Below are positions 1 through 58,720 of a DNA stretch of 64,000 nt, one piece after another. Source of the DNA: Psammoneis japonica (Eukaryota); NCBI GenBank assembly GCA_008632985.1, contig QPGO01000050.1, forward strand, positions 310,001 through 374,000, written 5' to 3'. Every line of letters starts with the position of its first letter. Position 1 is the stretch's first letter. A program made the position numbers and the translations under genes. The notes beneath the pieces are model-generated. The model ran no database searches and was not told where the DNA came from. It worked only from the letters and a program-made list of their open reading frames with translations.

Positions 1-3000
1 ATGCACTGCCAGATCCAGCCATTCTAAATGCAAAGGGAGCGGATCACTTTTTTTCCGAGGCTCACTCGTGGTTGGCAAAGTTAGATGGGAAAGCCTTGAT
101 GACAAACAAGCTGAGCGAGGGATTGGCTGCTCAAGGAATGCCTGGGGTGGCTCTTCTTGACACAAACAAGACCACTTGTGGCACTCTTGATCTTCTGTGT
201 GACATGCTTTCAGCACAAAAGGCTTTGCGACTGTTTGAAATTTGCTTGACGGTGATGTGATGGTTCTGCTGCACAAGGATGGGCCGCACGGGGTTCTTGT
301 CAATTGACCCTTTAGCTGCGCTGATGACAGCCACCAAAGCACTCCATTGGAGCACAAGGCATGCCGCGCATCGACAGCTGCCATTCTAACCAACGTTTGC
401 TGTGGCCTCAAGGGACAGGCGTTCCTCTCTGTGGAGGACACCCACAACCTTTCCTCCTTCTGTGGCCACCACAGTCTGCACGCAACTTGGCCTGCCATCT
501 TGGTGCCAGCTTTGTGATGATTCGAAGTGGGCTTGATGGCGAGATGATGGTTGAGCTGTGCAAGGATGCACCGCGTGGGGTTCTCGTCAACAGACCGGTG
601 TGCTGCGCTGGTGACAGCCGCCAAAGCACTCCATTGGAGCACAAGGCACGCCACACATTGACAGCTGCTGTGCCAACCAACGTTTGCCGCGGCCTCAAGG
701 GAAAGGCACTCCTCTCTGTTGAGGAACATTTCGAAAATCGAGTTGCAAGTTCTCGAAATTGCTGTCCTGTTTTGGTGGAACACGAACGCCATGACGGAAC
801 ATTGGTTGCCAAAGTGAACTTTGAGGGGAAGAATGAACTGCTTTTCAAAGAAGTGAGGCATTTGAAGTGGCCAGGGCTTGAACGCAAGATTCCTCGTACG
901 CTGACTCTTGCATCCGAAGAATCCATGTCGTGCTGTCCTCCTGCCATTGACATCAAGAAGACCATGAGCTGTCACCACAGGAGCTGCAAATGAGTGGCTG
1001 TGCAAGTGCAACAAACTCATGGCAGCAAGACAAGAAGTTGTTGCATGACAGGACCAAGTCAATGCAAGAAATGCAAAAGGGAGGGTGTGTCATGTGCAAA
1101 ACAAAGACAGCCAACTGCTGCATGGGGTGTCACATGCATTGATGCAATTGCTCCTCCACAATGAAGGAAAGAGTGTGCAGGAGTTTGCCATGGGCCCCAT
1201 CCTTTGCCATTTGCAGCTGTGACAAACAATGCATCCAGCCCAGTTGCATGTGAATTTTCCACACCAAACTTTGGCACCAAAACAGAAAGAGAAGAAGTTC
1301 ACAGAACATTGGTGCCACAAAGCCAATGACTGTGCATCCATTCTAGATGCTTGCTTTGCTCAAGGGCACCACGCAGCTCTGCACCCAGATGCACAGCAGT
1401 GCCACAATGATTTTAAAGACAAGCAAACACACATGGGGCACCAGTTTTTTTAATTCAATGCAAACCCATCAAGAGTGTTGTCTTTTGCAGTTGGCTGCCT
1501 TTGCTTGGTGCAACCCCCCTGCACTTTCATTGCATTTTGGTTGGTTGCCATGCAAGGTTTGTGCAGCACTGCTGTGGACATGTGAAAAGCTGCTTTGGGG
1601 TCACATGCTGATGAGGATGACCAACAATGCACAAATTTTGAGGCAACTGTTTGGAAGAACTTAAAGAAATTGCCACATCAACTGCGACCCAACCCAACCA
1701 TCAACTGTGGCAACAGCCCCAGTTGAGCCAGTGCAATGCTGTGTGACAAGATGTGCAATGTGCAACAAATGCAAAAGTCATGAGAGGCATCAGAGCAAAA
1801 AAGAGGCAGCACAATTCTGCAACAATGGAAAGTGCTGCAGAGTTGCGTGCACAAGCCCTCTGACAGTTTCTCTGTGCATTTGCACAGATTTCACACAAGC
1901 AGCCTCCTCACAGGGGGGTCCCATTCACTGGCCCAAACAAACTCTTTCTTGGACACAAAATGTTTTTGACAATTGCCAGCTTGGCGGAGACAGGTTTGGA
2001 GAGGCAGGTTTTGCATGGTCCTTGATGGCTGCAATCAGGAAGGCCACCAGACCACCCACAACTTGCGTCAACCAGCGCAGAGACATTTCACTCAGCTGTC
2101 TGGTGGTGCTCCAGCCATGCTGGGGGCGGGGTCGGTCGGTCGAGGAGCACGAGAGCCAAAGTGAGCTGCAACATCAGCGCAGCCCTTCTGAGTTGCACTG
2201 CAAACATGATGAAGTTGGAGAGTGGTTCACGTGTCCTGCTTTTGTTGTTGTGATGCTTTTTGACCGCCGCTGCTCCCTCGTCCGGCAGCCGAACCCGGAA
2301 ACCTCGCAAGGCGTTGTTTCGTCACAAGCTTTGCCATTGGCCATTGCCCATTGCCAATGGTGGACTGCACTGTGTCTTGCTCGTGTTGCTCATGATCGCG
2401 ATGACACAGTGCCGCTTTGCCTTGCACTCTAGAGAGCAGACTCTAGAAGCAACGGGAGCATCCATTGGGGCTTGCAGTGCACTGATGCAAAGCAACCCAT
2501 TGCCCTGCGAAACCATGAGCTCAGCATCATCTGCGCTTGTCCGGGGGATGATCCCATCGTTGCTGTGAAGTCAAGCCTTCCAAAGTGCGAGAAGTGTTTC
2601 GCAAGGACGGCGTGACATCTGGGCATCCCAACCCACATTTCCCGGATTTTTCTTTTCTCCCATGCGAGACTTTGTTCTTGACCACTTTTGCTTCCCTCTT
2701 GGGAGAACAAAGCGATGCCATTGCTGCCCATGGGGTTTGTGTCATGCTGGCACCAGCATGGCTTGTGTGCAAAAAGAAGGTTGACAAAAATGACAACAAC
2801 AAAGACGGAGTGGGAAGCACGGCGAGGAACTCAATCACACATGTTGGGCCTTCCTCAAAGTTTCCAAAGTTCACGCCTCCGTCTGACATGCAAAGTGCTT
2901 TTGTTGGTGCCATTGCCTTGTGACGTGCAGTGCCATTTCAGATGTTGCATTGCGTCGGCTGCAATGACACCCCCAAGCAAATGAAAAAATGGTTCGAAGC

Positions 3001-5340
3001 CATGACGCAACTTGAAGCTTGCCTGTTTGGATGCATCTGGTGTGGGAGATGAGCTTGAAGAGGTTGAAGGTGAGCCAAGACATTGCATGGACAACAGAAG
3101 CTGACTCATTCCCGCTTTTTCAATTTTCAGGCCCTCATGAAACCCATGTTGCAAGGACGTTTGCTCGACAATGTGAAGATCTTGAACGACATCCAGGAGA
3201 AGAATGACGCTGATCGTTGCGAGAAGGCTTGGTCTCGCAATGTCATCAACATTGATGAAGAAGCCAAAGAATGAAATTGACACATGAGGTTCGACACAGC
3301 AGGCAAAGCGCGGATGCACACAAGTCTTCAATTGTGCTTGTCTGACTTTTGTTTGACTCACTCAACCGTCTCCAAAACTCGTGGACATTGCCAGTTTATG
3401 GAACCGAAATGATTCAGAGCGCCATTGCGAAGTGGTCGATCCAGAAGATTAAAAGACGGTGATTGCTCGTCACACCAAGATAAATGTCTCCTGAGGACAT
3501 GAAACTCTTGCGCACAAAAGACGACAGTGATGACTGCCATGTTCCACACCACTTTGCAGCTGTGGATGCAGAAAACGAGTCAACCGTGTGGTCATTGGGA
3601 GGTGCACTGTCAACACCTGGAGCCATCGTGGATGTTCAGGGCATGGAATGCAAGCAGCGGGCATTGCTCATGCTGCATTCTCACTGCAACAGGTCCAGAA
3701 CGAACCCCGTCAGGACAGGTGAAACCTGCAAAAAAGGAGTTTCAATGGCCTGTGCGCACAGCACGCACATGTTCTTGTTTGATTGTGTTCAGTGATCACT
3801 GTCACTTTTCACCAAGACTTTTCATATCCCGTTGGTTTTCTCAACCGCTCAGGCAACTGTGCAAGGCACACCTGAGCTTGGGGCATGGCCAAGATCCCGC
3901 CCCCAGGCATTCCATGCCGGTGTGTCAGGACAATCGCGAGCAAAACCAGTTCTCTCATTGCCAAGCTGCATTTCTTCCTGTTGTGAATCGAAGCCACCTG
4001 GACCAGGCAAAGGCAAGCCGGAGCACAGCCACAAGTCACTCATCTCTCATGCAGAGCAATGAGTCCTGGTGCACTGCCGAAACCAGGTGCCGCAGCACAA
4101 CAGCCGCAGCCAAGAAACTTCGACAGCAGGCACTTGCAGAATCATCTTAAAGCTCTTGATCAATGACATCGTTGTGATTTTTCCTGCGCTTGACATGTCA
4201 ACAGGTTGCGCACCTTTCGACAACAGCTTTGATTCTCTCCGCTTCACGAAAGACTGCTGAAGACAAGACGTCTGCTCACAAAAGCAACAGATCGTCGAAA
4301 ACAGCAGCGACGGCATCACAGCACCTTGCGCGAGAGCTACGACCATCAACGTGCGGAATGAATGGCGCACAAATGAAGATTGCTGTGCTGTGCTCTCAGT
4401 CTTTCCACTTCTCCATTGCAAAGGTTCAAAGTTTGTTTCGGATGTTTGAAACACGCCAATGTCAAAAGTTGACAGAAATCGGTCACGCAGGATGACATTG
4501 CCTCAAGAGTGCAATCAAAAGATGGCGCTCAAGCTTTTTCCCATTTTCGGGGTGGATGACCACCCCAAAAAAAAGAAAAAGGGGGGACGTGCTGCGGAGA
4601 CAGCAAGAGAATCTTGCGAGTCAACCGCGTGCCAAATCAACACTCCCTGCGAGTGAAGACTTGCCGCACCACGTCACTGATGCAATGGAACCCCAAACCC
4701 CACGTTCCGTCAACGGCATGATCTGCTTGGCGAGCTTTTGCTGCTTCGCAGATGAACACTGCTGTCTGTTTCAACAGCCGTGACCTGATGGGTCAAGCGA
4801 GCAGGCAACTTCCCATGGTCAAAGACACAGGAGTGACATGGACTCCAGGCCAGAGACACGCACTCGATTTGCCCCGACCTCCGGACTTAACTGCTGGCAA
4901 CACCTGCTCCACCGATTTCAACAGCACACTTGTGCTGAAGCAACTTTGACAAAAAAAAGAGACAAACCGCCAGCACTGGAGTCAAGCTCGAGGTGAATTG
5001 GGGAAAAAGAAGGATCAGATCACACCCAGCGGATGGTTCTGCGGGCAGTTGTTCGTCACGCTTCTCGAATGATGAAGCAAAAGAGAAGTGCTTGATCCTT
5101 CTCCACGGATGGAACACCAGCCTGAAACAGACGGTGTCGATGCTCCACAGGTGGGGTTCTTTGCACTTCTCTTCACCCATGTGCCATCATCGTTCCCGCA
5201 CCAATCACTGATGATTCCCTTGCGGCATTTGTGCGGAGAGGAACAGATTTTTGAAAACGGGCGGTCGTTTGAAAATGGAGGGAAATGATGTGGCTGGGAA
5301 ACCAACGGGTGTCTTTCACTGTCACATTTTGTGTGATTTG
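1..5340. mobile_element. TpA-depleted, hypermutated repeat/TE-derived block 1 (family not identified)
   Basis: I count 5 TA dinucleotides in bases 1-1020. TG/CA are abundant and CpG is partly retained. ORFs here are almost Tyr-free and Cys/His-rich. TE origin is inferred from the same composition in the LTR-containing block. Confidence 0.6.
259..715 (+). repeat. Diverged ~285-bp direct duplication inside a hypermutated ORF
   Basis: 'gctgcgctgatgacagccaccaaagcactccattggagcacaaggca...aaccaacgtttgc..ggcctcaaggga' at ~315-415 recurs at ~602-702. Confidence 0.8.
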
Positions 5341-5570
5341 TGCGAACCCCTATGACGTCAGCTGAACTTCAAACAGGGCGAGCTCCGAACTCCAGATTTC
5401 CTTGTCTCTCCACACTCCACATTGCCGGTGCAATGCGACAGCACTTCTGTCCATGCCCCGCACTGCCCATGGTGGACGGCGTTCGTCATCATGTCAATGT
5501 CGTGCTGAACTTCACCGGCATCATAACATGCTAAAAGCACCCTTAATCATAGGCTGAAGTAGGGATAAGA

Positions 5571-6410: not shown

Positions 6411-6424
6411 CGCAAAAACAAAAA

Positions 6425-8065: not shown

Positions 8066-8083
8066 ATTATAAAAGATGCAAGT

Positions 8084-15825: not shown

Positions 15826-15829
15826 AAAA

Positions 15830-28445: not shown

Positions 28446-29035
28446 TGTTAACAGGAGAAAGAATGGATGCGTATGGCGACTAATGAGCGAAGTTCTTTAC
28501 GTAACACACCGAATGCGTTGCGGCAGAGGAGAAAGCTTGGATGAAAGAGCGAATCATCATCATCGCATCGCATCGATTGATTTTCGCGGCGCGGGCGGGA
28601 TCGATCTGGGTACGGTAGGATGCAGGGCAGACAGACGGAAAAATTGAAATCCGGCGGCGCGGCCGACTGACCGGCATTTTCTCGAAAAAGATGGACTCGT
28701 TGACGCTGTTGACCGTCGTGAGAAGCACTCTGAACTCTGACTCTCGTGTCTCAGGGACACACCAGTCAACATTGAATGGCAGGAAGAAAGTGTTTTGCAA
28801 GAGTCTCGAGTCAACTTGCCCGTCATCGCTGAGCATCACACACACTCCACTTGATTGACACTGAAACTGCATGCACGGTCAGTGCAAGAAGAACAGCACA
28901 CAGTGTTCCTGAGCATGTGCCAACCAGCTGGTGAGCCCATCATGTTACATTGCAGTGCTGCAGTCAGCAGCTGTGAGGAGAATGTCATGAGATGATGACT
29001 CTCTCCAACAAGGAAGAAAGGCGCACAAAGAGAGA

Positions 29036-35495: not shown

Positions 35496-35575
35496 CAATC
35501 TCGGTCCTTCAGATAAGATTGAAAGAGGATACCCTCGAGTAGCTACCCGCGAAGGTCTCCCAATAACAAAGACGA

Positions 35576-43000: not shown

Positions 43001-43640
43001 AGGTCAGTTGAAAAGATTTGACATGTCGCCAATATAATCGGGATTATTTGCTTGGAAGGTGTTGGCATTGGCTCTGTGTGGATGCCGGAGTTATTCACAG
43101 GAGAGCTCAGAGCTGAAGAGTTTGATGTTTGATTTCTCTTTTTGCCCGTCATCGTGAATTGCTGATACGCCAGGTTGTCCATAATGCTATCACTAATCAT
43201 CTTGATATGAATGATGCTCAAATTCTAATTGCTACTGCTATTGTCGCCGCTGCTGTCGCGCTTGCTCTTGTAATAATCGCGTTGTAGCTTTTCTTTAGAG
43301 GCGACAATCGCTTCAGGTTTCTCGTGAGAAAACAAATCGTGTCCTCGCTTCTCACTCTTTCCGTTCACAGGAATGGCACAAAGGCCAAGAAATATGCTAG
43401 ACGCCACAAATACTTGTGTGCGAGGTCCTCCCGGAAATCTTCTTGACTGCGCAGAAAGTAGATGAATGAGAGAATGGTGAGACGGACGAAAGAAGATAGA
43501 GCAGCGTCTCACAATCCTTCCAAGCAAAATAACTTACTCAATGCTTCAAGCCCCATATGTATCGGTTGCGTTGGTTGGTTGCTGTTTTAGGTAACAGCAT
43601 ACAGCATTGGGAGCGGGTGTGTTTTGTGGTTTGGTCATGG

Positions 43641-43684
43641 TACCGTATCAGGGACATAAATATATTTATGTCCCTGTACCGTAT
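43641..43684. mobile_element. 28-bp perfect palindrome flanked by 8-bp direct repeats (hAT-like micro-element or footprint)
   Basis: taccgtat-CAGGGACATAAATA|TATTTATGTCCCTG-taccgtat. Confidence 0.75.
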
Positions 43685-43719
43685 GTACCAATGGTGAACC
43701 TCCTCCATTCGTCTGTCTG

Positions 43720-46700
43720 CGCTGCCTGTGCACGCTAATCACGCGCAAGGCGCCAGCCTTCAGCTCTCCACCCGGAAAACCCCCCATCTTCCGAGCAAAC
43801 CCTCAGCACCACACCCTGCTTTCAACGCACGAGGAGTTTGGTTCTGCCACTTGTTTTCTCCAAAAACTTATGACAAGCAAAGTCATTTGTCACAGATTTG
43901 GCACAAATTCTTCATGTCAGCACAAAGTGCACAGACCGTGGTCAGCCAAGAACTCGTCGCTCAGATCACACCCCGGGAAAAGAAAGTGGCCGGAGCAAAT
44001 TCCTTGCATGTCAAAAGGGGTCAAGCAATGGGGGTTTGTTCAGATGACAGGGTTTGAGTGGGAGATGTGATCATTGAGACATGTCCCTCTGCCAAATTGT
44101 TTGGTGGCTGTGCCCCAGAAAGTTGGCCATGGCACTGCTGCTGCTCGCAATGCAGGGCTTTGATGCCCATTCTCAACATGAAGAGCCCATCACATTTGGC
44201 TTGATCTGGCACTCACACATGGACAAACTGGTGCCATCTTCCTGCTGAGGATGTTTCCTGGCACTTGTCTAAGAGGATGGGATGAGCGAGCCTTGCAGGC
44301 AAAGATGGGTTGCCCTCGCTGTCCTGATGCTGCTCACTCACTGCACTGACAAAGCTGCACACTTCAAAGCGCAGCTTTTGCCATTTGTCTGCCAGCCATG
44401 CTCTGCCATCATCACATGCAGGGCTGCCACAAATGGTGTGAGGCAATGATGTTGCTCAAGGCACGTGGATTGAAGTGTTTGTGTTTTTTCTTTTTTTCAC
44501 AGTCTGGCAGAAGAACCTGTTTTGTTGGTGCTTTGGACAAGCATGACTTGGCATGTTGGCATCAGCCACTCTTTCCCACCAGCCACAAACTGAGATGCCT
44601 CCATGGTCACCTTCTTCTCTTGACTTCTGTGAGCACTTGCAGCTGCACTCAGCAAAACATGCCATTGGGTTGGCTTTTGCTGGCAAATCTTTTTGTTGTG
44701 TTGCAAAATGACTGGCCTGCCATTCTGTTTGTGCCAAATAGAATGTTCTTGGGGAGATGAGCTTGTGCCAATGTCCACATCACACAATGCTTGGAAAACC
44801 CCTGCTCTGACACAACCACTGATTTTGTGTCTTCAGTTGTGAGCCTCTCCAAGATGCCCATGGATTTTTTGTCCACATCTGTCTTGAGTTTAATCTGGAC
44901 CAGCTGCAGCTGGGAATGTGGTCTGTGGTGATTTGTCTTTTGTCCAGGAGCCAAGATTGTCTGAAGTGTTAGCCCACCCCTCAGATTCTGTGCAAGTTGT
45001 CAACAAGCACACCCAACAAGCACACCCAACAAGCAGATGAGCAACCCCTGCTTTTTGCTGACTCTGCTGAAATCTGAGATTGGCCACTTTTGACCTCAAA
45101 TCCCTGGGAAATGATTGGTGCATGGCACCAGAGATGTGCACATCACATCATCAGATAACACAGCACTCTTGCCAACATGCCAAAGTTGCCAGAAATGGCT
45201 CACCTGGGCACTGTGGGTCTCTCAGATGAGAAGTTGCAGGAGATCCTTGGAGTGTTGTGTCAGCAAGTGGGGTCTGATGCCTGGCAAGAAATCTTGGTGC
45301 ATTTTTTGACCAGAGGCAGATTCTTTTTCATGAGCCCCATCTTGGTCATCTGGTGTGCAGCCATTTTTCACAGTGATTGAGCAGCGCTGTTTCAACCTCC
45401 TCTTTGTCTGGGTTTTGTTTGTCAGTGCCTGTCAGAACATTTTTGGGGCCAGAGGCAGTTTGTCAGGATAGACAAACAATGCTGCAGTGCAAGACACACT
45501 GATGATTGTGGACAATGTGGTGAATTTGCACTCACAACTTGGGTTGTGTTGTGGCTCTGGTTTGGTTCTCACTTTTTGGCTTCTGCACCTGGTTTGCATG
45601 GCAATGGTGGTCAATGGCAATGGGAACATGTTTGCAAACCACAAGGGGAGCTCAGGGTTGGTGAGACCATGTGAACATGCCAGTGGATGAGCCACAAAAC
45701 TCCAACAGCTGCAGAAGCCAAAAGGTCACTGCACAAGACACTGGATGACCTGTCATCAAACCAAGTTCTCACCTCAACAAGTCACAGATTTCAGTCCCAA
45801 GAAGTGCAAACATGAAGTCAAGACTCAATGGTTGGCATGGGAGAAATTTTCATTCCCATGAATGAAGATTCCCCAGCAACCTGACAGTGCCACAGCAGTT
45901 GACACAGGGCAGGCTTGGGAAATTTAAAGACTGAAGCCCAACTCCAAGGCTGCAATGCACAACACAGATGGTCACAGCATTGTCAACAATGTTCAACATC
46001 AACAGTTGACTTTGGTGCACAAAATTGAATTCACCAAGTGCAACATTTGCAGCCAAATGATGACAAAGCCTGGTTCCATCTCTGTCCACTGGGGGTCTGA
46101 CAATTTCATGCACAAATGCATGAAAGACTCTGACTCACAGGACCAAGTGTGACAGTTGGCAAGCCAAAATGCTCCAATGTTGGTCTGGAAAATGTGGGCA
46201 AGGACACAGCTGAGCACAGGAGCACACAGGATTTAAAAAAGTGGGTGCACAACACCGTTGCCAAGTTGGGGTGAAAGGCAGATGTTTGCATGGAAGCCAC
46301 AAAGAAGATTGGCCGCGAGCATGTTGGGACAATGTTTGGGCAGGAGATGCAGGTGCTGGTGTGTCTCTGAGGCAGGAGAGCATGCCAAGAAAAGAGCTGG
46401 AGCATCCATCAGGAGACACTGCACATCAGGAAGGACAAAGAAATCTGGGACAAGCAATGCAGTCAATCATGATGTGAAACAGAGTGAAATCTGCAAGATG
46501 CAGAAGGCAAGGCACTGAGCACAATTGTGGAACACAATGTGCAAAGGCCACTCATCACAAGATGATCATCAAAGGAGTGATGGAGTTCATGAGAGTCATG
46601 AAGGAGTGGAGCATGGTGGTGTTGTTGGAAATTCTCAAGTTGATCTTGTTTGATGAAAATGAGAAGATGTGCTTGCCAGAGGTGCACAAAGCATCTGTTG

Positions 46701-49700
46701 TCATCTGCACATGCACATTTGCACACTCATCATGCACACAAATGAAAAATGATGAGATGGTTGTTTGTCACCAGCCAGCAAGTTGATTGTGTGCATCAGG
46801 CAACAACATGCAATTCATGCACCACCTCTGGAACTCACATGTTCAGGTGGTCAGAGCTTGGAAACAGCTGGCACTCATTTGTCAAGACAAAGGAGAGGTG
46901 CACTTCAAGATTCTTGTTGTCACAACTGGCTGATGACACCTTCTGGAACAAGGAAAAAGACAAATTGTCAGCAGCAATGCTGATGGAAGGCAAAAAGGAA
47001 TGTCGGCAATGGGAGATGACAATTGCCCCAATTTGGCTGAGGAGGCACTGCAGGGATTGGACACGTGTGAAGCCAACAAGAAGCCCAAGGGCACAAGCTT
47101 TGTGCCAAATGAGAAAAAGCAGCTCAAGCACTGGGAATGCAATGAGGTTGGGCATGTGAAAATGGATTGCCCTGACATGATCATTTGTCAGCGGTGCAGA
47201 GTTGGATGATGTGGGCCAGCCCACAGCAATCAGCAGAGCAGTCAAAGTGGTGTTGGATGACATGGCTCCCAAGTGTCATCCTCCCATGCTTGATGCACAT
47301 GAGGCCAATCAATTGACAGCTCATGTGAAGGAGTGTGTTGAAACATTGGGGTTGGAGGCAGTTTTTGCAGGACAGACAGACAATTTTGCAGTGTAAGATG
47401 CACCAACAATTTTGGACAATGTGGTGAATTTGCACTCACAACTTGGGTTGGGTTGTGGGTCTGGTGTTCACTTTTTAGCTTCTGCACCCAGTTGACACCG
47501 GCAACAGTGGTTGGCAGCAATGGGAGCATGTTTGCAAACCACACGGTGAGTTTGTGGGGTGGTGAGACCAAAGCAACACATGCCAGTCGGCAAGCCACGA
47601 ACTCCAACAGTGCCATCTTCTTGCTGTTTCTCCAACAGCTCAGTTGCAATGAGGTGTGTTGAGGAGTCTCCAACATCTGGTTGATCATTTGCCATCTTCT
47701 GCAGTTTTTGTGACCAAGTCATTTTGCTGCACATTTGGCAAGGTCCTCCAGCCAAGCTGAGCAAGAGCAGCAGCCAGCGTTGCTCTGGTCTCTCAGAGGT
47801 GTCTTCAATGCTGAGTGCAGATGGCCCCAGCTTCCAGCTTGCTCCTGCATGGTTCTTGGCATGCTGCAGCCATGAGTTGTCTAGAGTGCAGCATGCCAAC
47901 TTTTTGTTGGAACCTTGTTCAAGCCCATCATTCCCAACACCCATGAGATTGTTGCCTTTGGTCTTTGCTCAGTGTCTGGCTCATGCTGTTGCCGTGCAAG
48001 GAGTGCTTGTTGTGAGTGTTGCATGCTGCAGAAATGCTGAGGTTGGAAAGTTCCTTTCAGCTGCTGAAACAAAGAGCTTGGGGGCGGTGCTGTTTGTGTT
48101 CAGCCATTCTCCAAAACTGACCAGTTTGGTCTGTGCAAAGTGCCCAATGTGTTTGTTCTGGTCTGCTCTGAAAACACTTTTGTTCTTGTGATCCTCATCT
48201 TTTCTGGAAATCTGTTGACCTTCTGGAGCACAGCTTGGAGAATTGAGCAAGGTTTGTCAATGGCTTGGGGGGGGGGGGGTGTAAACAGCTTGGGGGGGCA
48301 CAGTCTTTGTGAAATTTGGCATTGCTGCTGTGGACCAGCAAGATGACCCCTGTTCTTTGTCTTCCTCAGTGGTTGCCTCTCTGCTCTGAGAGACCATGCA
48401 GTTGCCTGCTGCAGCTCCTCTCTGCATGGGCCACTTGCCCTCACCCCTGCCAAGTCCTGCAGCTGAACAGCTTGAGCAGACTCAACGCTGTTTTGTGGAT
48501 GGGGGTTGCAACTCTCCACTCTCCTCCCTGCACAACATGGCAACAGTGCTGGAAACAATCTGCCTTTCGCTGAGGTCTCATTGCCATCATTTGTTCTGTG
48601 CCCTGGATGGGCACATTGTTTGTCAAATGTCATGGCATCATTGTTGGCTGTTTTGTTGTTGGGGGGAAGTTGGCTTGACATTCTCATGATCTTGCATCTC
48701 CTTGTTGCTGAGACAAAGGGCTGAAACTTGCTGTCTTTGGAAGGTTCTTCAGAGCCACTGGAGCTCCAAGAGGTGGGCAAGTTGGAAGAGGCACACTGGA
48801 AGAGCTGCAAGAGAAGCTTGGAGCAGATTGTGTGGAGCAAGACTTTTTGCCACATGCTGCTTTCTCCTGCATTGCCTGCCCTGGCCACAGCCTTGACATT
48901 CTTTTCTTCTTCTTGGGACTGTTTTCTTTCATTTTTTTGTTTTCCAGAAAATCATGGTGTCAGCCAGAGTGTTCACAACAATGAGTTGTTCTGTGAGCCA
49001 ATCATTGGATGACTTGTTGTGTTGTCCTGAGACACATCATGGTCACCCTGCCACCCCCATTGTCAAGAACCTCAAACACAATGTTTTTGGTTGCCACTCG
49101 CCTTGTTTGGCCAGAAGAGAAATTGCTGAGTGAGCTGACATTCATTGTCATCAGGCTGGGCATGGGTGGCCACCATCTTCTTTGCCTTGGCAGCATTCTT
49201 GGGATGAGTTTTGAGCTTGTCAACAATGCCCACTGCGTCGCTGCTGCTGTTTTGATGTTTTTCATTCATGTCTCAGCAGTCTGCACTGTTTTTTTGTTTT
49301 CAAGACCTTTTGAACTCCTTGCCATTGTGCTGCTTTGGATCAGATGTTTTTTGTTTGTTTTTTCTGAAGAGAGCATCAATCTTGCCTTGGGTGTCTGTCT
49401 TCTTGTGAGTGCCCTCCTGTGTGTTTGGCATTGCAGAGGGAGGCTCTGGGTGCTTTTCATGTCTGTCATGCGGCAAAAATTGGTGCTGGTGCTGTGTGAC
49501 AGTGTGGGGCTGCCAGCACCTCTTTCACACACTGATGCATCACATGCATGATGCTGGAAAAGTTTTTTGCTGATCCTCCACCCCACAGCATTTCTTTTTC
49601 ATCAGTTTTGTGTTGGACATGTCACCATTTGGTGTCACACCGTGCTCTCTTGTCCTCTGTTTGAGCTTTTCTGCTGTGCAGCACCACTTGTGACTGGAAG

Positions 49701-49900
49701 AGGTCTTCAAGTGCACTCTTGCTCGTCATTCTTGCCAGGAGCAAAGCCCTTGTTGGCTGCTTTCTTGTTCGACAGCCATTTTCAATTTGATCTTTCCTCA
49801 CATGTCTGGTTTCCTTGTCTTTCCTCATCTGGCTGAGAGGAACCCTGTGATCGAAAACCCTCCCCGACACTGCACGCACAGCAGACACGTGTCACACAAT
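43720..49900. mobile_element. TpA- and CpG-depleted hypermutated block 3 (unidentified host element carrying a nested LTR element)
   Basis: About 2 TA and about 5 CG counted in 47700-48700; Tyr-free ORFs. Confidence 0.75.
45430..47609 (+). mobile_element. Gag-only copia (CoDi-like) LTR retroelement: LTRs 45430-45707 and 47336-47609, TSD GTGCC
   Basis: TGT...AACA LTR pair. GTGCC at 45425-45429 and 47610-47614. Purine tract gaaggagtg before the 3' LTR. Gag remnant MGDDNCP..GTSFV with degenerate zinc knuckle WECNEVGHVKMDCP (~47130-47175). Confidence 0.9.
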
Positions 49901-50430
49901 GGATCATTGAGTCATGACCGGGTGAGTCATGATGATCGTCAGTCCCGAATCATCAGAATTCGCGCAAGCTGGCGTATGTACGTCCGGTCTTCTGGCGGCG
50001 TCAATAATTACTTCTTTGTCAGAACAACGTCACACCATAAATAAAAAATTCAAAATGATGCATTCTCGTCGAATCAGAATGGCCGACAGCCATCAATCTG
50101 GTTCAGTATACTGAAGCTCCTGTAGAAATCTACGTAGCAATGCTCCAACGCGACTGCGCTCGCTCCAACGACGTCGCTCCTTCCGCCACCGATCATCTGC
50201 GTGCATGCATTTTCGACGTTGGCGACATCGACACATATGATACACCGCATGCACACATCACAAACGAAGTGAATTCTGATTGTCTGACTCTGATTTCAAA
50301 CGGAAGATACACTTCTTGACTCAACCTTTCGAGTCAACAAGCTGTTTTGAAGTCAGGAAAGCAACTACGTTTGCTCACAATTCCCACACCTTCCGTTTCA
50401 ACAACAACGATTCAAGCATACCGTTTCACC

Positions 50431-51186
50431 ATGATGTCGGCATCAACCACAAGAACTTTCTCCATCATATCGCTCCTCTTGTCTTGCAGCTATTACGGAG
50501 TCGATTCGTTTGCTCCAATGTTTGCTACAAGACACTCTTCTGGTCGAAGAAATCAAGCTGCCTTTTCCTCTACGGCTACTACTCTGGAACCGGCCGCAGC
50601 AACGATGAGACACGCCGACATGAATACATCACGTCGGTATTCAGAAGACCGACAAATGCCTGCTCAACCTTTTGAAAAACGAATGAGAGATTTAGTGCAG
50701 GGCAAGCCTAAGAAGAGGACAGCCAACAGCAGAGCAAATCCGATGAGACCGCCCAATGTACAAGAAGTTCTGACTCTAGAAGAATACAAAAAGGCTGTTG
50801 CTGATGTGGACGACAAGCTCGTGGTTGTAAGGTTCTATGCAAAGTGGTGTAAGGCGTGCCGGGCTATTGCTCCCTACTTTTACAAAATGGCTAGAGAATA
50901 TGAGGACGTGGCTGTCTTTGTCGAGTTGCCAGTGACGGAGAACAATGCAAATGTTCATCAGGGACTCGGGGTGCCGACCATACCGTTTGGGCACATTTAC
51001 CACCCACAAGCTGGGCTTGTTGAAGAGCGGCTAATGGTAAGAAAGGCATTTCCTCGTTTTCTTCAAGTCTTCAAAACGTACGTCAACGGATCGTGTGAAC
51101 TGCTGTCGGACGGGCTCTGCTCCAACCCATATGCCGATGAGGCGTACGCAGCAAAGGTCGATGGAGAGAAGGACACAGCCATATAG
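50431..51186 (+). CDS. Thioredoxin-domain protein (atypical WCKAC), plastid targeted
   Basis: Signal peptide + SFAP; LVVVRFYAKWCKACRAIAP; LGVPTIPF. Confidence 0.9.
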   Translation: MMSASTTRTFSIISLLLSCSYYGVDSFAPMFATRHSSGRRNQAAFSSTATTLEPAAATMRHADMNTSRRYSEDRQMPAQPFEKRMRDLVQGKPKKRTANSRANPMRPPNVQEVLTLEEYKKAVADVDDKLVVVRFYAKWCKACRAIAPYFYKMAREYEDVAVFVELPVTENNANVHQGLGVPTIPFGHIYHPQAGLVEERLMVRKAFPRFLQVFKTYVNGSCELLSDGLCSNPYADEAYAAKVDGEKDTAI

Positions 51187-51484
51187 ATGCTAATATCACC
51201 TGCTAAGTAACAATAGAGCCAACTATATAGAGAAACAAAAACTGCTATTGATAAAAATCAATTGAAACTGTACTGTAGGTCGTTGTCTTCAACCATCGCG
51301 AGGACGAACAAAAGGGGCGGATGAGAACCAACAACTCGTCTCGAAGTTGAAGCCTTCCAGTCATCAGATTTCGTGACCAGCCTCTGAAATCGCAAGTTCG
51401 AATGAAACACGGTACTTAACTTACACACTAAAGCTACAACTCATCATATCTAAACAATACAGTACTTCATCATCCTCTGAAGGC

Positions 51485-53460
51485 CTACAATTCTTCCTTG
51501 ACACTTCCGTCATCAGAAGGGAAAGACGAATTATCCTTTGAGAACACTTCTGCCCAATTCACATCCACAATACCGCACAATTGGTTACCAGGTCGTTTGA
51601 TGGTGCTCTGAATGGCCATTCTCCTTCGATTAGCACCAGAGCATGGGACGAACTCCAGCTCGCACATGGCTTCTTCACAAGTGGCAGCCGTGATGGTATC
51701 CACTCCCACTTGAAAGTTGGCAAACGTGTTGATCATGTTGGACTGGATAAAGATAAAGGCGCAATGACCGCGTGCGCAGAAGATATCCTCGGTCCAACAT
51801 TCAGCGCACTTTCCCGAAAAGCCGATTGGTTCCTCTCCCAAACACTTAAGAACAGCTTCGCGTCCGCCCCAGAGCGACTTGCGAGCACACCTTGCAGATT
51901 CTTTCGCCAGGTACTCTCTCGTGGTGTATTGCAACCTAAGGTTATGCCAGTCAGAGCAGGCTCCACAAGCACCACAGTGAGCTATCTTGTATCCAGCATT
52001 ATGGGCAGCTTCCTTTGAATCAAAAGTGGAAATGTCGCCTCCGAGTTTGTCGAACGCGCAAACAGGCCCCACTTCCATGTGGCCGTACAGAGTCTCGTGG
52101 ACACTATGGAAATGTTCTCGGAACGACGTTCATTTGGGCAGTGGCGAATACGTTCACAATCGTCACAAAGAGGGAGAGGGCGCTGATGACACACAGAACG
52201 TACACGTCGGCTTTGGAAAAAATGACAAGCTGGGAGGGGGTAGACCACCTCATTTTGACAAGCTCCCAAGTTGATCGCTCGTGCTCTGGATCATAGTCTT
52301 CTTTATCCTCGTCCCCTTCCTCCTCTCTTCTTCTTCTTCTTCCTCCTCTTCTTCCTCGGAGATTTTTTCCATCGCCTCAAGTTCTTGAACCGTTTTGAAC
52401 ATGGTCGAACCGAATACGTGAGAGTAGATCAAGCTCATCGCCATTCGTTCCCTCTTATCGTGGACTGAAAAGCGTTTCTGAGACGCCATCCTTTTCTCCG
52501 TCTCGCGCCATTGACTGTAATGAGAAAAGAGATTGCCCAAAAAATAAGATGAGAAAGTCACCAACGCCAATCCCGACTCGTTCTGCCAAATCCTGGTGCC
52601 CCAGACTTGTTGTATGAAATGCCACCCATCAGCAAACATGAAGGAAGAAATCACCGCAAACGCAAAGGACATGGAAAGAGCAATACGAGCCTGCTGCTTT
52701 GCATTCCTTTTCCGCGAGAACTTGATGGCTCCCTCGATCACGAAGCCAATGAGGAAACCGACTACAGCAGATTTTGGCCTTCCACAAAATGGCAGCAATA
52801 AGCAATAGACAAAGAAAAAGTACTGACAGATACTCCAGGTCACATTAAACCGAAGAGCCTTCATGCCTCGGCCAACGTGCTTGATGCGCCATTGCTTATC
52901 GGGGCTGTAGTAAACACCTATCCACCGAGGAGTCTTTGTAGACACCACAAACCATAACCAAGCAGCTTCCAGTCGAGAAAGCCCTTCGAGTACCAGCTTC
53001 ATGCGCCAGTCAATATCTCTAATCAGATATGACACAATAGTTGCAGAAGCAGTGATCAAGCACATCATGATGGCGACAACCTTTAACGCCGTTCGATTCA
53101 CGGCCTTGCGTGCCAGCCGCTGCTTCCTCGCGTCAGTGCTTGTCCAACTCTCGTCAATTGCGCGATGGTATTCTCCAATCTCGGTACTCACGTCGAGCAA
53201 GACTAGGGTCGCTATGGCTGTCGATGCCCACGACAAATGGGGATTCTCGGGGAGCATGGGAATCGAGCTCGTCATGGTGGTTGCAATCTACCGGAATTGA
53301 GAATGCTTAAAGACTGCGGGAACTTCGCCATGATATGTATGTTCTGATGGATCTTCAAAGACGCTGGAGGGGTGCGCGTTGCTTTGCTGGATGCGGGGGA
53401 GTTCGGAGCTCGCGTTGTCTGACGTCAACCTCCGCACTCCGCACTCAGAAGGAATTCTTA
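51485..53460 (-). pseudogene. Multi-TM membrane protein with Cys-rich C-terminal domain; frameshifts ~52110-52290, in-frame stop ~53288, 5' end abuts a TE block
   Basis: 341-aa TM-rich ORF plus 197-aa Cys-rich ORF (IAHCGACGACS..CSGANRRR) joined across frames. Confidence 0.65.
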
Positions 53461-53461
53461 C

Positions 53462-55110
53462 ATGGACTTCCATGACAAAAATTGGGCAAAAAAAGGAGGG
53501 ATGAACAAAATGCCAAAAGTGAAAGACATGAGGCTGTTTTATGGGCTCCAAAAGTGGGTAGCCAAGATGCTCTTCAGCCAGCAGCACAGCCAGCCAATCC
53601 TGGGCTCGCTTTCCAATTTTGCCAAACAAGCACAAGCTCTTGGGTTGCTCAAGCGATGCTCACAGCCGCGCATCTTGCAAAGTGTTTTCAACACTTGCTG
53701 GTGTGTTCCAGCTGACACCTGTCTTGTGGCAATGCATTTTAACACTTGCCATCTCTGACTGCACAGAGCTGTTGTGTTGAAGAGAGCTTGCCGACATGTG
53801 TCGCTGTGTTGAAAAGAGCCGCGTCCATCAACTGCAAAGAAGCACGCCACTCTGTCTTTGCAGAGCCAAGACAATTTGCAAATTCTCCACAGAGCACTTT
53901 GTGTGCTGCAACTCTGTCTGGGAAACATCGTGAGGCAACAAAAAATCTGTTGGCTGCAACTCTGTCTGGGGAACATCATGGCAACAAAAAATCTGCTGAG
54001 AACATGCAGCCAGCATTGCTCGCTGTCCCTGGCAATTCTCTGCACACTCAACTGAATTTGCCTGAACAACCTTTGGGTCATGTTGCAGCTTGCTTTCATC
54101 TCAATTGCAAGCTCCTGATCATGTGAAACTGGCTTCTTTGCATGCACTGCTTGACCCACACAATCTTTTTGCCTCTGCACAGTTGGTCTGTGTTGGCAAC
54201 AATGGCAGTGCTTGTTCCCTCATTTTTTGCCTGTCTTTCCCAATCAGCTGGCACCAAAACATGCTTTGCCATTCACAACTCTCACAACAACAAATTTGCA
54301 GAGTCATCTGTTTTTTTTTCAAACATCTTTTGGCAGCACCCAAGGTTGCTTCAACAATGAAGCAGTGTGCTGCTGGCATTCTTTGTCTGAGAGGTTGTGG
54401 ATTTTGCAGGGCCAAAAGTGCAAGTGAGTCCTGACCAAAATCAAAAGGTTCCAAGATTGGGGCCAAAGCCAACCTCAGCTCACAAAGAAAAGAAAAGTGA
54501 AATCCATTGAAGATGGAAGCAGAGGATGAGTTGGGAGTTGGGGCAAGGGTGATTGGGCACAAGATTGATTTAAAATGATGGCAAGAAAAGTGATCAAGCA
54601 GAGCACATCACTGCAGCTTGATGAGAGAGAAAGATTTGAAAGTGCACCCAGCCACACATTTTGCCATGCTGTCAATTCTTGACAGCCAGTGCTGCTGGTC
54701 ATTTGGATGCACACACTCAATTGCCATCATGAGAAGCAACCTCAATGAGATGGCCCTTCTTCCCCCCCCCCCCCCCCCAAATTGCTCCAATGAGACCAAG
54801 CGTGCCGCCAGCGCCAGCGGGACTCCTGTCCCTTGTGCACTTGATCACAAGCTCATTCTGAGACATTGGGGGTGCACCTTTCATGGAGGAAGTTGCCACC
54901 ATCACAGTGTCATGACAAGTGTGTTCTTGTGGAGAGCACCATCAATTTTGGAGGAATGCATCCTGCACTTTGTGGGCATGTGCCAAGAGAATTTCGAGAC
55001 ATTTGTCCAGATGCCCATTGCACTGAACTCACCCAACACATTTTGTTGCGTTTGTTGGCATTGTGTCAAGCAACAACAGGTTGCCATCATCCACCATTGA
55101 AACAATTGGG
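53462..55110. mobile_element. TpA/CpG-depleted hypermutated block 4, with a ~48-bp tandem duplication at ~53905-53998
   Basis: Composition as in block 3; gctgcaactctgtctggg.aacatc.tg..gcaacaaaaaatctg x2. Confidence 0.6.
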
Positions 55111-55345
55111 CAATTTATTTAGGACGACTTATGAGCTACAAATCTGCTACCGGCATTTTCGAAGTCTCCTCTTGAGAGATTCGAGAATGCTTCGAAAGAC
55201 AAAAAGTGTAGTAGGTCTACCACCACGTGCTCTAGAAAATTCTTAGTGTACCGCAGACAATTCATGATGTTTCTTCAGATGATAAAGTAGTGTGGAATTT
55301 GTAAGCCTTGACTCGAGCAGTATCTCAAGGTAGCCAAAAACTGCG

Positions 55346-56353
55346 CTAGGATCCGTACTTCTCGTCGTCCCCTGGCATGCCAAACTTGCTGCCATCAAGG
55401 ACTTCCATAGTGCCAAGTAAGTCACTCCAGCGCGGTTGTCCAGTTGCACGACGCAAGACGCGTCCATTCTTTTTCAAAATAATATTGAATCCTTTTGAAA
55501 TAACATCGAATCCTTGGCCTGTTGCAGTTTCTACTTCGGATTTCAAGCAGTCGGCCCACTGGTTGTTCCCTCGCGGGAAAGCAATAACTTTACTTGAGCG
55601 ATCGACATCAAAGTTACGGTCTGTATCTTCCGAAACCGTGGTCGCCCAAGCCGATGCCGTGTCACCAACAGTCGTGCCGTCAGCTTCGAGTAAAACGGGG
55701 ACGACAATCATGTCTGCTGCGGCGATAGCGGATGGGATGTTGTTCTCATCTACCAGTTGGTCAGCATTGAGGCTGCGGCACAGACTCGAGATGTATTCTT
55801 TTCCTCCTGCTGCTATTAGGACACGCGAATTCCGCCGATAGTCTTTCAATGTAGCTGCCTTCACCGTTGTGTCGGCTGGGGACACGACAAGTGATGCAAG
55901 CGCACCACCTTTGGCAATACGCGCCAAGTTTGCTTCTCCTGCTTTCCAGTCTCTAAAAGTGATGAATCCACAGAGCGCCACAGCCCCAATATTGATTGCG
56001 CAAGATTGGAGAGCTTCATCCAAGGGTGGTGCGTCAGACCATCCGCCAGTGTAAGCCTTAATTGTGCTCAACAACGAAAAATACAGTGCCACAAACGCAG
56101 AAATCGTTGAGAAACCAAAAAAGTAAAGCCTCACAGTCCGGAAAGGCGATTCCACCTCCTCTCGAAGACGTTGTTTCACTGTGTATCCACCAAACTTCTT
56201 TTCGAGACCGTCGTCATCGGACATGAGAAGAGGGCTGACGCTGGTCCTAGACCTGCTCAAATTCGGACTACTTCTGGGGGAGTGCCGAATGGCGCGAGGC
56301 GCAAACGGCGCTGCTAATCCAAAAGACAGCGCCAACAAACCCAAGACTCTCAT
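55346..56353 (-). CDS. LPA1: LOW PSII ACCUMULATION 1-like (DUF3493) plastid protein
   Basis: Signal + APFAP; RLREEVESPFRTVRLYFF; LKDYRRNSRVLIAAG; LKKNGRVLRRATGQPRW. Confidence 0.85.
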   Translation of the reverse strand: MRVLGLLALSFGLAAPFAPRAIRHSPRSSPNLSRSRTSVSPLLMSDDDGLEKKFGGYTVKQRLREEVESPFRTVRLYFFGFSTISAFVALYFSLLSTIKAYTGGWSDAPPLDEALQSCAINIGAVALCGFITFRDWKAGEANLARIAKGGALASLVVSPADTTVKAATLKDYRRNSRVLIAAGGKEYISSLCRSLNADQLVDENNIPSAIAAADMIVVPVLLEADGTTVGDTASAWATTVSEDTDRNFDVDRSSKVIAFPRGNNQWADCLKSEVETATGQGFDVISKGFNIILKKNGRVLRRATGQPRWSDLLGTMEVLDGSKFGMPGDDEKYGS

Positions 56354-56689
56354 CGCTTGATTTTGATATGTTTCAGCGGGGGATCATGAGTATTGAGCAC
56401 CACCGGTGTAGAGGAGGGAACAACTCATTGTTACACGTTTTACAGTACGTTTCACACAGTTCGCACACTCAGTTTCATCGTGTGACGTGTTATGATCCTT
56501 GATCCTTGCTGCGTGGAAAAACGTCCTGACTTATTGTGGCTTCCGCTTCCTGTACGTTGGCGGCAAAGAAATCTTGGAGTTCGGAGCTCGCAATGCTCGT
56601 ACGGTGTGTTTGACTGACGTGTTAGAATGGAGTAGACTCTACCAGCAGTGGCTCTAGCTGCTAGAGTGGTTGTTAGTTGTAGTTCGTTC

Positions 56690-58720
56690 GCAAAAAAACA
56701 AAAAAACCCAAGATTATTGACACTGTCTGCACTCTGTGGGGCCCTTTGTACAAAACACGTGATGGTGAAAAAACAAAAAAAAACCGTTGGTTTGCTGCTG
56801 CCACATTTTCGAAAATTTTGAAGCTGGCTGCAAGCCCGAGACAAGTGAGTTTCCAAGCACTTTTGCTCATTGTTGTTGTTGCACGGAGCACACAAATTTG
56901 CCATTCGACCTTTTGAAACACATCGCTCCTGTTTTCATTGCCACGGCTGTTTCACTTCTTTGCTGAAGGTGATTCGATCACCTCGTTCTTGCTGCGAATT
57001 GGATCTGCCAGAGTCAAGTCATTGAATGTTGTCTGCACACGATTGCCATGAAAACTGCAGACCTGAAAAGAGGCTTGGGTCATTGACACTTTTCCTCCAT
57101 GTGCATTTGAGGCAGGTTGGCTGGTTGACCACACAAAAACACACAAAAATTGCAGTTTGAAGATTGGCGCCTGCTGCCTGGACCACCAGCATGTCAGGCC
57201 ACACTCTGGGCTGCTTTCTGCACCTGAAAATTGCCAATGAGCTGCTCAGAGTGTTGCATGTCAAGCATGGACAACACAGAATCAGGAGATGAACTTTTGA
57301 AGTTGTGTGGTGAGACTTGCGGTGCTGCAGCCAGGAGTCTCAGCCTTGTCTCAGCTTTGTCCTGACCATCAAACATGGAGCCAAATTGCACTCAAAAGCA
57401 ACTCTGGCCACCAAGCCTTTCTGTGTTCCTCATGAGTGCACATCCTAAATCCAAACAATGTGCATGCACACACGCAACTTGAGCCCAGTGTCAATGTTTG
57501 CATCCACTGTGGGAATCACCCACAACAGAGAAGCTCTCCAAGTGATTGACCCCGGATTGTGGTGTGTCCTCTTCTTCCTTGAACTCATCGTGCATCACCG
57601 TTGCAAACAGCTCACATCTCACGTGCATCCTTTTCCATGACTGGCATGTCATTGCCACTTTCTTTGACTTGCTGTGTCAGAATCCTCTGCAGAATGGCTG
57701 GAACTCATCATTGTCTGCTGTCTCTTGACCGTTGGAGTCTTTCAAAGTTCTTGGTGCTGGAGAAACACATCGAACAATTCTTGAGCCTTCTTTGTCTCTT
57801 CACAAAATGGATGAGCATCTTCTTCAAGCACCTCTGTCTCTTCTCCACTCTCCATCACTTCATGCTTGAGACCCTCAAAGAACAACTGGAACTCATCATT
57901 GTCCAACGCACAGCCATTGCCACATGGCATTTTGTGTTGCATTTTTTCAATGCTCTGTGAGCGAATCATGAAACACAATCCAGCATGAGTTGGAATTGGA
58001 AAAAGAACAGCCATGCATGAAAAACTGCTTTGTTGTTCCTTTCATCCTCCTGCCGAAAATGTGCTCATAAAGGCAAGCCACAATCAAGAGCTAGAGAGGC
58101 AAAGATCAACGCAACATGCAACATCATTTTTGTTGTGAAAAAAGCTGAAACATTCTTCCAGAAGATGTCAAGAGGAAATGTGGCAAAACACTGATGATCA
58201 CAAGTTTGGAAATGTCAAAGATCTGCATCTGAGGTGCGCCCGCAAAGATCTGATGACTGGACTGGCCGCAGCGTGCGACCAGCGACAGGAGGCCTTGCTC
58301 TTGTGTCTCTTGATTGACCAATCACATTGAATTTTATTTGCTGTGGTTGCCTCTTGTTCAAGGAGAAAATCATCATTTGAGACCACCAAGACAGGCAGAA
58401 CAGCTTTCACCAAGCTCAAACTTTCTGACAAACAAAAGAGCGGACAATTTGCAGCACGCCGGTTTGCACATTCGTTGATGGAGTTGTGAGGTTGCACTGC
58501 ATGTTGAGAACACTTGAGGTTGAAACAAACTTGTGAGACAAACAAAATGTGGTGCTGTGGCATTGCATGCTTTGTTTTGCTGAGGACTGCAGATTTTCAA
58601 ATGCGTGGTGGTTTTGGCAAAAGCAGTGTGCACGTGAATGACAAGCATGCGTTCGAGTCACCTTCACCAGCCGCCAGTGAAACTTGGACGAGCTGCTTCT
58701 TGGAAAAAGGTTCTACGAGT
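56690..58720. mobile_element. TpA-depleted hypermutated block 5
   Basis: Near absence of TA, Tyr-free ORFs, gradual return of TA/CG at the edges. Confidence 0.6.

Follow-up and report, generated by a model that had tools for sequence, protein, structure and literature searches.

The window and its TpA-poor blocks

The 64,000-nt window analyzed here (Psammoneis japonica, contig QPGO01000050.1, positions 310,001 to 374,000) belongs to the compact nuclear genome of a photosynthetic eukaryote. Open reading frames (ORFs) with Pfam matches to ankyrin, HPP, LRR, UbiA, RRM, FSH1 hydrolase, thioredoxin and LPA1/Rep27-type (DUF3493) families are separated by intergenic blocks from which the dinucleotide TpA (TA) has nearly vanished, referred to below as TA deserts. 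For the UbiA protein, the closest relatives were only 47–53% identical, and those with names were diatoms (Grammatophora transcriptome, 47%; Epithemia, 41%). Most probably these non-genic blocks underwent in-place, TpA-specific A:T>G:C hypermutation on both strands, together with a separate decay of CpG (CG).

TA occurred 0–7 times per 500-bp window within the flagged stretches vs. 8–35 times across the remainder. A sequence-only reading of the same DNA had described five TpA-poor domains; all were recovered, except that the domain at 28.7–33.9 kb proved to be two blocks, bringing the number to six. Its spot counts were exact (five TA in 1–1020, at 25, 82, 313, 387 and 897; two in 47700–48700, at 47882 and 48282). 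Block coordinates were derived from TA-free gaps and border sequences, and composition was pooled over 20,280 nt inside the blocks (about one third of the window) and 43,720 nt outside. Values are given as observed/expected ratios (obs/exp).

1 to ~5400: desert D1, open at the window start; 19 TA in 5,400 nt (TA 0.06, TG 1.70, CA 1.59)
28620 to 28945: small desert D2a, 326 nt, no TA (obs/exp 0.00); 330-nt TA-free gap
28946 to 29409: normal TA-rich island of 464 bp between D2a and D2; 28 TA in 29001–29500
29410 to ~33900: desert D2; TA 0.09, with a 1,516-nt TA-free gap at 29409–30925; CpG-poor at 29.4–30.9 kb, with a tandem array after it
43740 to 49975: desert D3, the most saturated; 13 TA in 6,236 nt (TA 0.03, CG 0.14)
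53460 to 55115: desert D4; 4 TA in 1,656 nt
56750 to 58920: desert D5; 7 TA in 2,171 nt

The blocks held 66 TA vs. ~802 expected at the outside rate of 1,726 TA in 43,720 nt (Poisson P = 3e-250), and the longest TA-free gap, 1,693 nt in D3, had P ~8e-30 for one gap at that rate. Transitions had been said to take tens to a few hundred bp, and this was observed: the borders at 43736, 49975, 55116 and 56749 were sharp to tens of bp, and those at 53338–53740, 58335–58922 and 5351–5524 were graded over 100–300 bp. Deserts filled the intergenic spaces and ended ~175–400 bp from the neighboring ORFs.

Composition and direction of change

Inside the blocks, pooled obs/exp was 0.05 for TA, 0.40 for CG, 1.71 for TG and 1.72 for CA, vs. 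0.58, 1.00, 1.16 and 1.12 outside. Across the six blocks TA ranged from 0.00 to 0.09 and TG/CA from 1.5 to 2.0. These values agree with the mutator first proposed for the domains, confined to sharply bounded blocks and close to saturation, ~91% of TA having been lost (0.05 vs. 0.58). For the four pyrimidine-purine (YR) steps TA, CG, TG and CA, the obs/exp values added up to a constant total (3.88 inside vs. 3.86 outside; by block, 3.83–3.96 in the five main blocks and 4.02 in the 326-nt D2a). A constant sum with TG and CA raised is as predicted if TA and CG were converted to TG and CA by transitions; the blocks have the appearance of the genome's ordinary DNA after such transitions.

All 16 NTAN contexts were reduced, with inside/outside ratios of 0.00–0.30. 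Surviving TA were enriched in TTA/TAA (47 of 66 inside vs. 687 of 1,724 outside), which suggests, on small numbers, that TA followed by a pyrimidine was mutated more efficiently. AA and TT were not reduced (1.23 and 1.29 inside vs. 1.16 and 1.16 outside), and the motif is therefore TA, not WA.

CpG depletion was uneven: within blocks, CG obs/exp in 500-nt windows lay anywhere between 0.00 and 0.95. CpG-dead cores lay within the wider TA deserts:

1.0–2.0 kb: core of D1
29.9–30.9 kb: core of D2
44.2–50.0 kb: core of D3
54.0–55.1 kb: core of D4
57.25–58.25 kb: core of D5

In these cores CG obs/exp was 0.00–0.2; elsewhere in D1 it was 0.44–0.84. At 4001–5400, TA was nearly gone (0.04–0.06) while CG was nearly intact (0.69–0.84), and TA and CG depletion within blocks were only weakly correlated (Spearman 0.36, P = 0.02). 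Complete TA loss where CpG was nearly intact is read as the work of two separate processes. The decay of CpG in sub-blocks fits cytosine methylation, with deamination of 5-methylcytosine as the probable cause.

TG and CA were similar in number in each of the five main blocks (542/565, 404/500, 755/676, 180/192 and 241/220). Strand runs in the order of TG and CA within blocks were not seen (z −1.2 to +1.9), in a runs test of low power as most TG and CA are native.

The direction of change was read from repeated sequences in and near the deserts:

40001 to 40744, minus strand: unmutated paralogue of D1 4296–5050, ~750 bp, in normal DNA
31298 to 33000, plus strand: tandem array in D2, five 410-bp units, the last two partial
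45443 to 45708, plus strand: D3 direct repeat, copy 1, 81.5% identical to copy 2 over 260 aligned nt
47346 to 47610, plus strand: D3 direct repeat, copy 2, ~266 bp, 1.9 kb from copy 1

Comparison of D1 with its 40-kb paralogue was limited to the well-aligned 268 nt (D1 4349–4536 and 4829–4913). The 15 TA of the normal copy corresponded in the desert copy to TG (7), CA (5), TA (1) and other dinucleotides (2), that is, to 12 transitions vs. 2 transversions among the changes; 13 of 16 TG and 13 of 20 CA were kept. Over the same 268 nt, substitutions from normal to desert copy were A>G (13) and T>C (10) vs. G>A (3) and C>T (2). At 4352–4488, successive TA became five TG and then five CA, and additional non-TA changes in the same two stretches were A>G and then T>C; this order hints at short, strand-coordinated editing tracts, which were not seen elsewhere.

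The 410-bp units of the tandem array were 95.6–98% identical to one another, and the array (31.3–33.0 kb) was less saturated than other desert DNA, with TA at 0.14–0.26. After exclusion of the misaligned array ends and one indel, ~19 variable sites were taken as real: 12 were TA/TG/CA, 3 CG/TG/CA and ~4 other. Among the 12 sites of the TA family, TA was retained in at least one unit at 8, and all three states were present at 4.

An adjacent double difference of CA against TG is expected where one ancestral TA (or CG) was converted independently on different strands. Nine such differences were counted between the D3 direct repeats (260 aligned nt) and 0–3 between tandem units (3 in four of six comparisons), and none in 377 nt of a control repeat pair from normal DNA. 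The control pair is a TA-rich tandem duplication right of D2 (34679–35502; period ~420–436 bp, 79–90% identical). Taken together, the paralogue, tandem-unit and double-difference data show a directional change of TA to TG or CA, on both strands and ongoing after local duplication, i.e., in chromosomal DNA.

These comparisons also bear on error-prone repair, in which deaminated 5-methylcytosine would recruit a polymerase-eta-like enzyme that mutates A:T at WA motifs. Polymerase eta acts in this way when immunoglobulin genes enter phase two of somatic hypermutation, and the weak correlation of TA and CG depletion and their confinement to the same blocks speak for such a coupling. We consider it very unlikely nonetheless, given that WA includes AA and neither AA nor TT was depleted, that TA changes were mostly transitions (12 vs. 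2 transversions), and that TA was fully lost at 4001–5400 with CpG nearly intact.

Assembly, copy number and content of the blocks

Logan contigs of run X1 were used as an independent check. Runs X1–X3 represent one sample from one study, possibly the window's own sample, and the library type of X1 is not on record; the depth comparison takes in D3–D5 with their flanks. Contigs at a k-mer depth of ~61 spanned 43531–45051 (identical to the window), 48291–54778 (17 letters off) and 54762–58940 (10 letters off), and crossed five desert/gene borders at the depth of the flanking genes (~61). In all, the window and these contigs differed at only 27 letters in 10.6 kb. Since the contigs bridge the borders at uniform depth, the blocks belong to the genome and the junctions are not chimeric. 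A contaminant or chimeric assembly, which the sequence-only reading had named as the alternative to its own view, was thereby rejected, and any artefact of assembly, base-calling or contamination is left with a negligible probability. Of 40 window/X1 differences listed overall, 20 at single-copy depth (~61) were checked, and 11 of these cluster in 280 nt of normal DNA (50823–51102) inside the ORF at 50347–51186 (Pfam Thioredoxin match); the cluster may be haplotype divergence.

Copy number differed along and between the deserts. The center of D3 (45000–48000) is a high-copy, diverged repeat core with a summed Logan depth of 238–2,040 vs. ~61–65 in the flanks. Of the 765 X1 contigs aligned, 393 were <90% alike, and differences were mostly transitions (116–149 in each of the four transition classes; 16–41 in each of the eight transversion classes). 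The right part of D3 at 48.0–49.98 kb and all of 53.4–55.2 kb (D4; depth 61.6) were at single-copy depth, both at a likeness of at least 80%, and D5 was intermediate (116–334). At 57463–57464 in D5, a CA/TG double variant separates the window from X1; it could equally derive from CG. Two regions of normal TA content, 59148–60686 and 42000–43800, had 3–5 times the single-copy summed depth in X1, so multi-copy DNA is not always desert. The first of them has a local low in TA (0.29 at 60001–60500) and an internal 105-bp repeat.

The searches for coding content returned nothing at threshold. Among 138 stop-to-stop ORFs of at least 78 aa in the blocks, none had a Pfam match at the curated threshold, and none of the six read-through frames of 44.9–48.2 kb matched a Pfam family. 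Matches below threshold were discarded as noise: APOBEC2 (16.5 bits vs. a cut-off of 26.8, 1347–1661), a rhabdovirus glycoprotein domain, thyroglobulin and RCDG1. In our reading such spurious matches come about because TG/CA-rich DNA translates to Cys/His-rich peptides. No relatives were returned by a word-index protein search for 1–1089 (minus strand) and 46746–47156 (plus strand), by a full HMMER search for 48103–48951 (minus strand), or, among viral contigs, by IMG/VR scans for 29342–30277 (plus strand) and 53542–54219 (minus strand). ESM Atlas gave no usable match for block sequence, a tRNA scan and Rfam gave none over the window, and an exact 37-mer of the D3 repeat was absent from the JGI metagenomes searched. 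Self-comparison of sequence reduced to purines and pyrimidines, so that transitions do not show, found no homology among the blocks. Within the D3 core, ~47079–47123 (plus strand) translates to H-x2-C-x4-H-x4-C-P, an imperfect zinc knuckle of retroviral type in which His replaces the first Cys, with no Pfam match. The core was also considered as a long terminal repeat (LTR) retrotransposon, which the data did not support: beside the direct repeats and the knuckle-like stretch, no gag-pol, reverse transcriptase or integrase family was found in six frames.

ORF lengths in the blocks matched those of shuffled TA-free DNA. The longest ORF was below the maximum of 200 shuffles in all five blocks compared and above the 95th percentile in two (D1, 363 aa vs. 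312; D3, 283 vs. 271). This bears on a native composition, in which a donor or a function avoiding TA and CG would account for the blocks without hypermutation. Joint scarcity of UpA and CpG with an excess of UpG and CpA is common in viruses, as described in PMC2707012, and lends the idea some basis. We regard it as highly improbable, however, as TA values of 0.00–0.09 in non-coding DNA lie far past any such bias, the ORF lengths are those of TA-free random DNA, and conversions are directly visible between the paralogues and between the tandem units.

The sequence-only reading had taken the domains to be DNA of transposable elements (TEs). For 45.0–48.0 kb the high-copy repeat supports part of this; the single-copy parts do not, and no TE family was matched. 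The finding which that reading had set against itself, single-copy domains without repeat overlap, holds for 48.0–49.98 kb and D4 and not for 45.0–48.0 kb. Because part of the desert DNA is single-copy, no TE family is matched and a paralogue is spared, TpA obs/exp, once suggested as a plain TE index, is better regarded as an index of the targeted class of DNA. The unmutated 40-kb paralogue shows that being repeated is not in itself enough for a sequence to be targeted.

Several motifs lie near the desert borders. The palindrome GTAG-N3-7-CTAC (mostly [AC]GTAGA-N1-3-TCTACG) occurred 7 times in the window vs. 0.72 expected, and six of the seven copies lay 40–175 bp outside a desert border, in a zone that makes up 4.4% of non-desert DNA (P ~5e-8, post hoc). 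The palindrome might mark a boundary or act as a promoter motif, or it might reflect a preference in where insertions occur. Two copies of the form GTAGA..TCTAC, together with one CGGAGCTCGC motif, are carried by the island at 28946–29409. An exact 15-mer, GAGTTCGGAGCTCGC, was present three times, each copy 50–160 bp from a desert border, oriented toward the desert and followed after 5–35 nt by CTGACGT; ~60–70 bp around it are common to D1 and D5. A 43-bp TA-rich palindrome, ~91% self-complementary, lies at 43641–43683, 55–100 bp outside the left border of D3.

29119 to 29130, 29370 to 29381, 50122 to 50133, 55208 to 55220, 56632 to 56642, 59020 to 59030 and 62723 to 62734: GTAG..CTAC palindromes
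5378 to 5392 (minus strand), 53399 to 53413 (plus strand) and 56577 to 56591 (plus strand): copies of GAGTTCGGAGCTCGC

For comparison with other genomes, 621 kb of metagenome sequence was screened, made up of 80 loci that surround relatives of UbiA. Windows with TA <0.2 and TG/CA >1.45 occurred in only 3 of the 80 loci, all of them eukaryote-like contigs by Pfam, in stretches beside UbiA-family genes:

L005, 7000 to 8250 (~7.0–8.25 kb): desert windows
L033, 1 to 1500 (1–1.5 kb): desert windows
L034, 4500 to 6000 (4.5–6.0 kb): desert windows, with a further stretch at 250 to 1000

These 1–1.5-kb stretches had TA at 0.05–0.3, TG/CA at 1.4–2.1 and CG at 0–0.5 (0.04–0.60 in the windows that passed the screen), and were less saturated than the blocks of the window. 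L033 and L034 represent a single locus in two assemblies (identity 99.89% in 2,706 nt), and their three differences, all in the desert part, were TG/TA, CA/TA and one A/T. Such differences suggest that TpA is still being changed in a second organism, in numbers too small to stand alone.

Mutation before integration was weighed against these data. A virus, cDNA or episome would have been edited extrachromosomally, for instance by an ADAR-like enzyme on dsRNA followed by reverse transcription, and would have arrived free of TA. The sharp borders at 43736, 49975, 55116 and 56749 and the untouched 464-bp island would suit an insertion, as would a 190-nt stretch in which the fates of TA were five TG and then five CA (~P = 0.008, post hoc). 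Edited sense RNA, however, would give one strand, while TG and CA were equally frequent in every block without strand runs (in the low-power test); within one tandem array, units have gone from TA to TG and from TA to CA independently; saturation in the single-copy blocks matches that of the repeat core; and TA/TG and TA/CA differences separate L033 from L034 at what is one locus. We rate this origin as quite improbable. The narrower case of ADAR-type RNA editing fixed by retrotransposition needs A>G on the sense strand only and was rejected, TG and CA being balanced in five blocks.

Proposed mechanism and known systems

Hypermutation in place is read as follows. Intergenic, non-genic DNA, part high-copy repeat and part single-copy, was mutated where it sits, and the sequence comparisons show essentially every TpA turned into TpG or CpA by transition, i.e., A:T>G:C on either strand. 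Both strands were struck about equally, flanking genes were spared, and TpA changes went on after local duplications. Beside a fast TpA process that would saturate everywhere, a slower and patchier loss of CpG to TpG/CpA is seen as a pattern in sub-blocks, presumably by deamination of methylated cytosine. The TpA process is presumably enzymatic, aimed at a silenced or foreign class of DNA, and of the same kind as the TpA>TpG/CpA hypermutation of Bigelowiella natans, compared below. The most likely chemistry would be a TadA/ADAT2-like deaminase acting on adenine after T in DNA; the natural tRNA substrate of TadA/ADAT2 is a U-A step, U33-A34. For an invader the predicted effect would be missense scrambling and loss of TA-containing signals, with no stop codons created, the mirror image of fungal repeat-induced point mutation (RIP).

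As TpA is self-complementary, modification of thymine is indistinguishable from this chemistry by sequence alone. The thymine of TpA could be the target if a TET/JBP-type enzyme made 5-hydroxymethyl- or 5-formyl-uracil in silenced DNA, which would pair with G and give T>C. The composition, paralogue and tandem results fit this equally well. In dinoflagellates, TpA and TpC are the steps at which 5-hydroxymethyluracil is enriched, and uracils with a substituent at position 5 form mispairs with G. TpC was not depleted in the corresponding way, however, as CC did not rise (TC 0.96 inside vs. 1.12 outside; CC 0.87 vs. 0.88), and the sole experimental precedent, the B. natans preprint, argues in its main text for adenine deamination, itself without proof. 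A thymine target is therefore held to be unlikely, though not to the degree of the other alternatives.

Several points weigh against hypermutation in place by an adenine deaminase. The paralogue evidence amounts to 15 TA sites, 9 double differences and ~19 variable sites, all small numbers, and the deaminase is purely conjectural. The diatom affinity of the host was read from a single protein, UbiA. With a spared 40-kb paralogue and with single-copy desert DNA, the target must be defined by more than repetition. The blocks yielded neither protein relatives nor any domain of a TE or viral protein. Borders of tens of bp and the untouched 464-bp island are unlike a diffusely spreading chromatin mark, and would also fit mutation before integration, which is opposed only by the tandem-array differences, the one CA/TG variant between window and X1 and the two L033/L034 polymorphisms.

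To our knowledge, hardly any case is known in nature of chromosomal DNA undergoing targeted A:T>G:C editing. The sole report of it found in the literature was a 2026 preprint on one rhizarian alga, B. natans, whose main text mentions neither diatoms nor stramenopiles nor CpG. Reports of TpA-desert blocks were not found among the titles and abstracts of the diatom papers listed by full-text searches, and the terms 'TpA', 'hotspot' and 'transpos' do not occur in a diatom mutation-rate paper (PMC6604790). A second, unrelated algal lineage, with the TpA signature saturated in a third of a gene-dense window, would argue for a real and possibly widespread genome defence instead of a one-strain oddity. 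Its targets could be mapped across diatom genomes by a simple index, the obs/exp of TpA taken together with CpA+TpG; such a lineage would also help to account for that part of diatom 'dark' intergenic DNA in which genes are not recognizable, and would point to natural adenine editing in a double-strand context, of relevance to base-editing enzymology. Repeat and single-copy targets, a spared paralogue and bp-sharp borders make the targeting rule a testable question. More speculatively, and with the balance against it, diatom-like algae, the chlorarachniophyte and at least one mat-dwelling eukaryote might share an enzyme-driven, TpA-specific, in-place DNA-editing defence that strips selected inserts of all their TpA. 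Boundary elements would confine it with a precision of tens of bp, and for these the ACGTAGA..TCTACGT-type palindromes outside six desert borders are candidates. Such an 'anti-RIP' would be old within SAR, with a TadA/ADAT2-like or other DNA adenine deaminase as effector.

RIP changes C:G to T:A at CpA, creating TpA and stop codons, and requires duplicated sequence, of which it mutates every copy. The blocks resemble it in that dinucleotide-context transitions, here putatively in genome defence, act region by region and are visible as a dinucleotide index (as outlined in PMC2621366). They differ from it in direction, TpA being lost and CpA/TpG gained (A:T>G:C), and in target, single-copy DNA (D4 and 48–50 kb) being mutated and the 40.0–40.7 kb paralogue spared. 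With the CpG decay of methylated TEs (diatom TE methylation, as described in PMC9998398) the blocks share a CpG obs/exp of 0.00–0.2 with TpG/CpA gain in sub-blocks. That decay explains only the CpG part, however, since TA has gone completely in places with almost normal CpG as well. The hypermutation of viruses and retroelements by animal ADAR and APOBEC, as presented in PMC4866542, is likewise enzyme-driven editing of invading sequence, a role that here would be conjectural. ADAR favors U before the edited A, as cited in the B. natans preprint (10.64898/2026.01.13.699255). The substrate of both enzymes is RNA or single-stranded cDNA, and their signature is confined to one strand, whereas in the blocks both strands are equal and chromosomal DNA is affected; APOBEC, moreover, changes C, whereas A is changed here.

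The closest likeness is to B. natans, in which integrated giant-virus and virophage DNA shows TpA>TpG/CpA hypermutation (Mettrop et al. 2026, bioRxiv 10.64898/2026.01.13.699255). According to the main text of that preprint, two integrated viral regions acquired 231 mutations in mutation-accumulation lines, of which 230 were A>G or T>C, all of these on TpA and at ~1000x the background rate, and an ADAT2-like DNA adenine deaminase is proposed (10.64898/2026.01.13.699255). There the rate was measured, whereas here the end state only is seen. The hosts differ as well, B. natans being a chlorarachniophyte and the host here a diatom-like stramenopile. Saturation is greater here (TA obs/exp 0.03–0.09 vs. 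0.45 in the nucleocytoplasmic large DNA virus (NCLDV) region of B. natans, with a cluster cut-off of <=0.43 there). Viral targets are described there, whereas viral or TE genes are not recognizable in the blocks, and CpG decays here, whereas the word CpG is absent from the preprint's main text. As far as that text describes the B. natans system, both have TpA-restricted transitions on either strand, in particular nuclear regions against a normal background; both show a long-term signature in the form of clustered windows of TpA depletion with CpA+TpG gain; and in both the targets are poor in annotated genes and the host is a marine alga of the SAR group. The blocks most likely represent TpA hypermutation of the B. 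natans type, carried to saturation in a diatom-like lineage.

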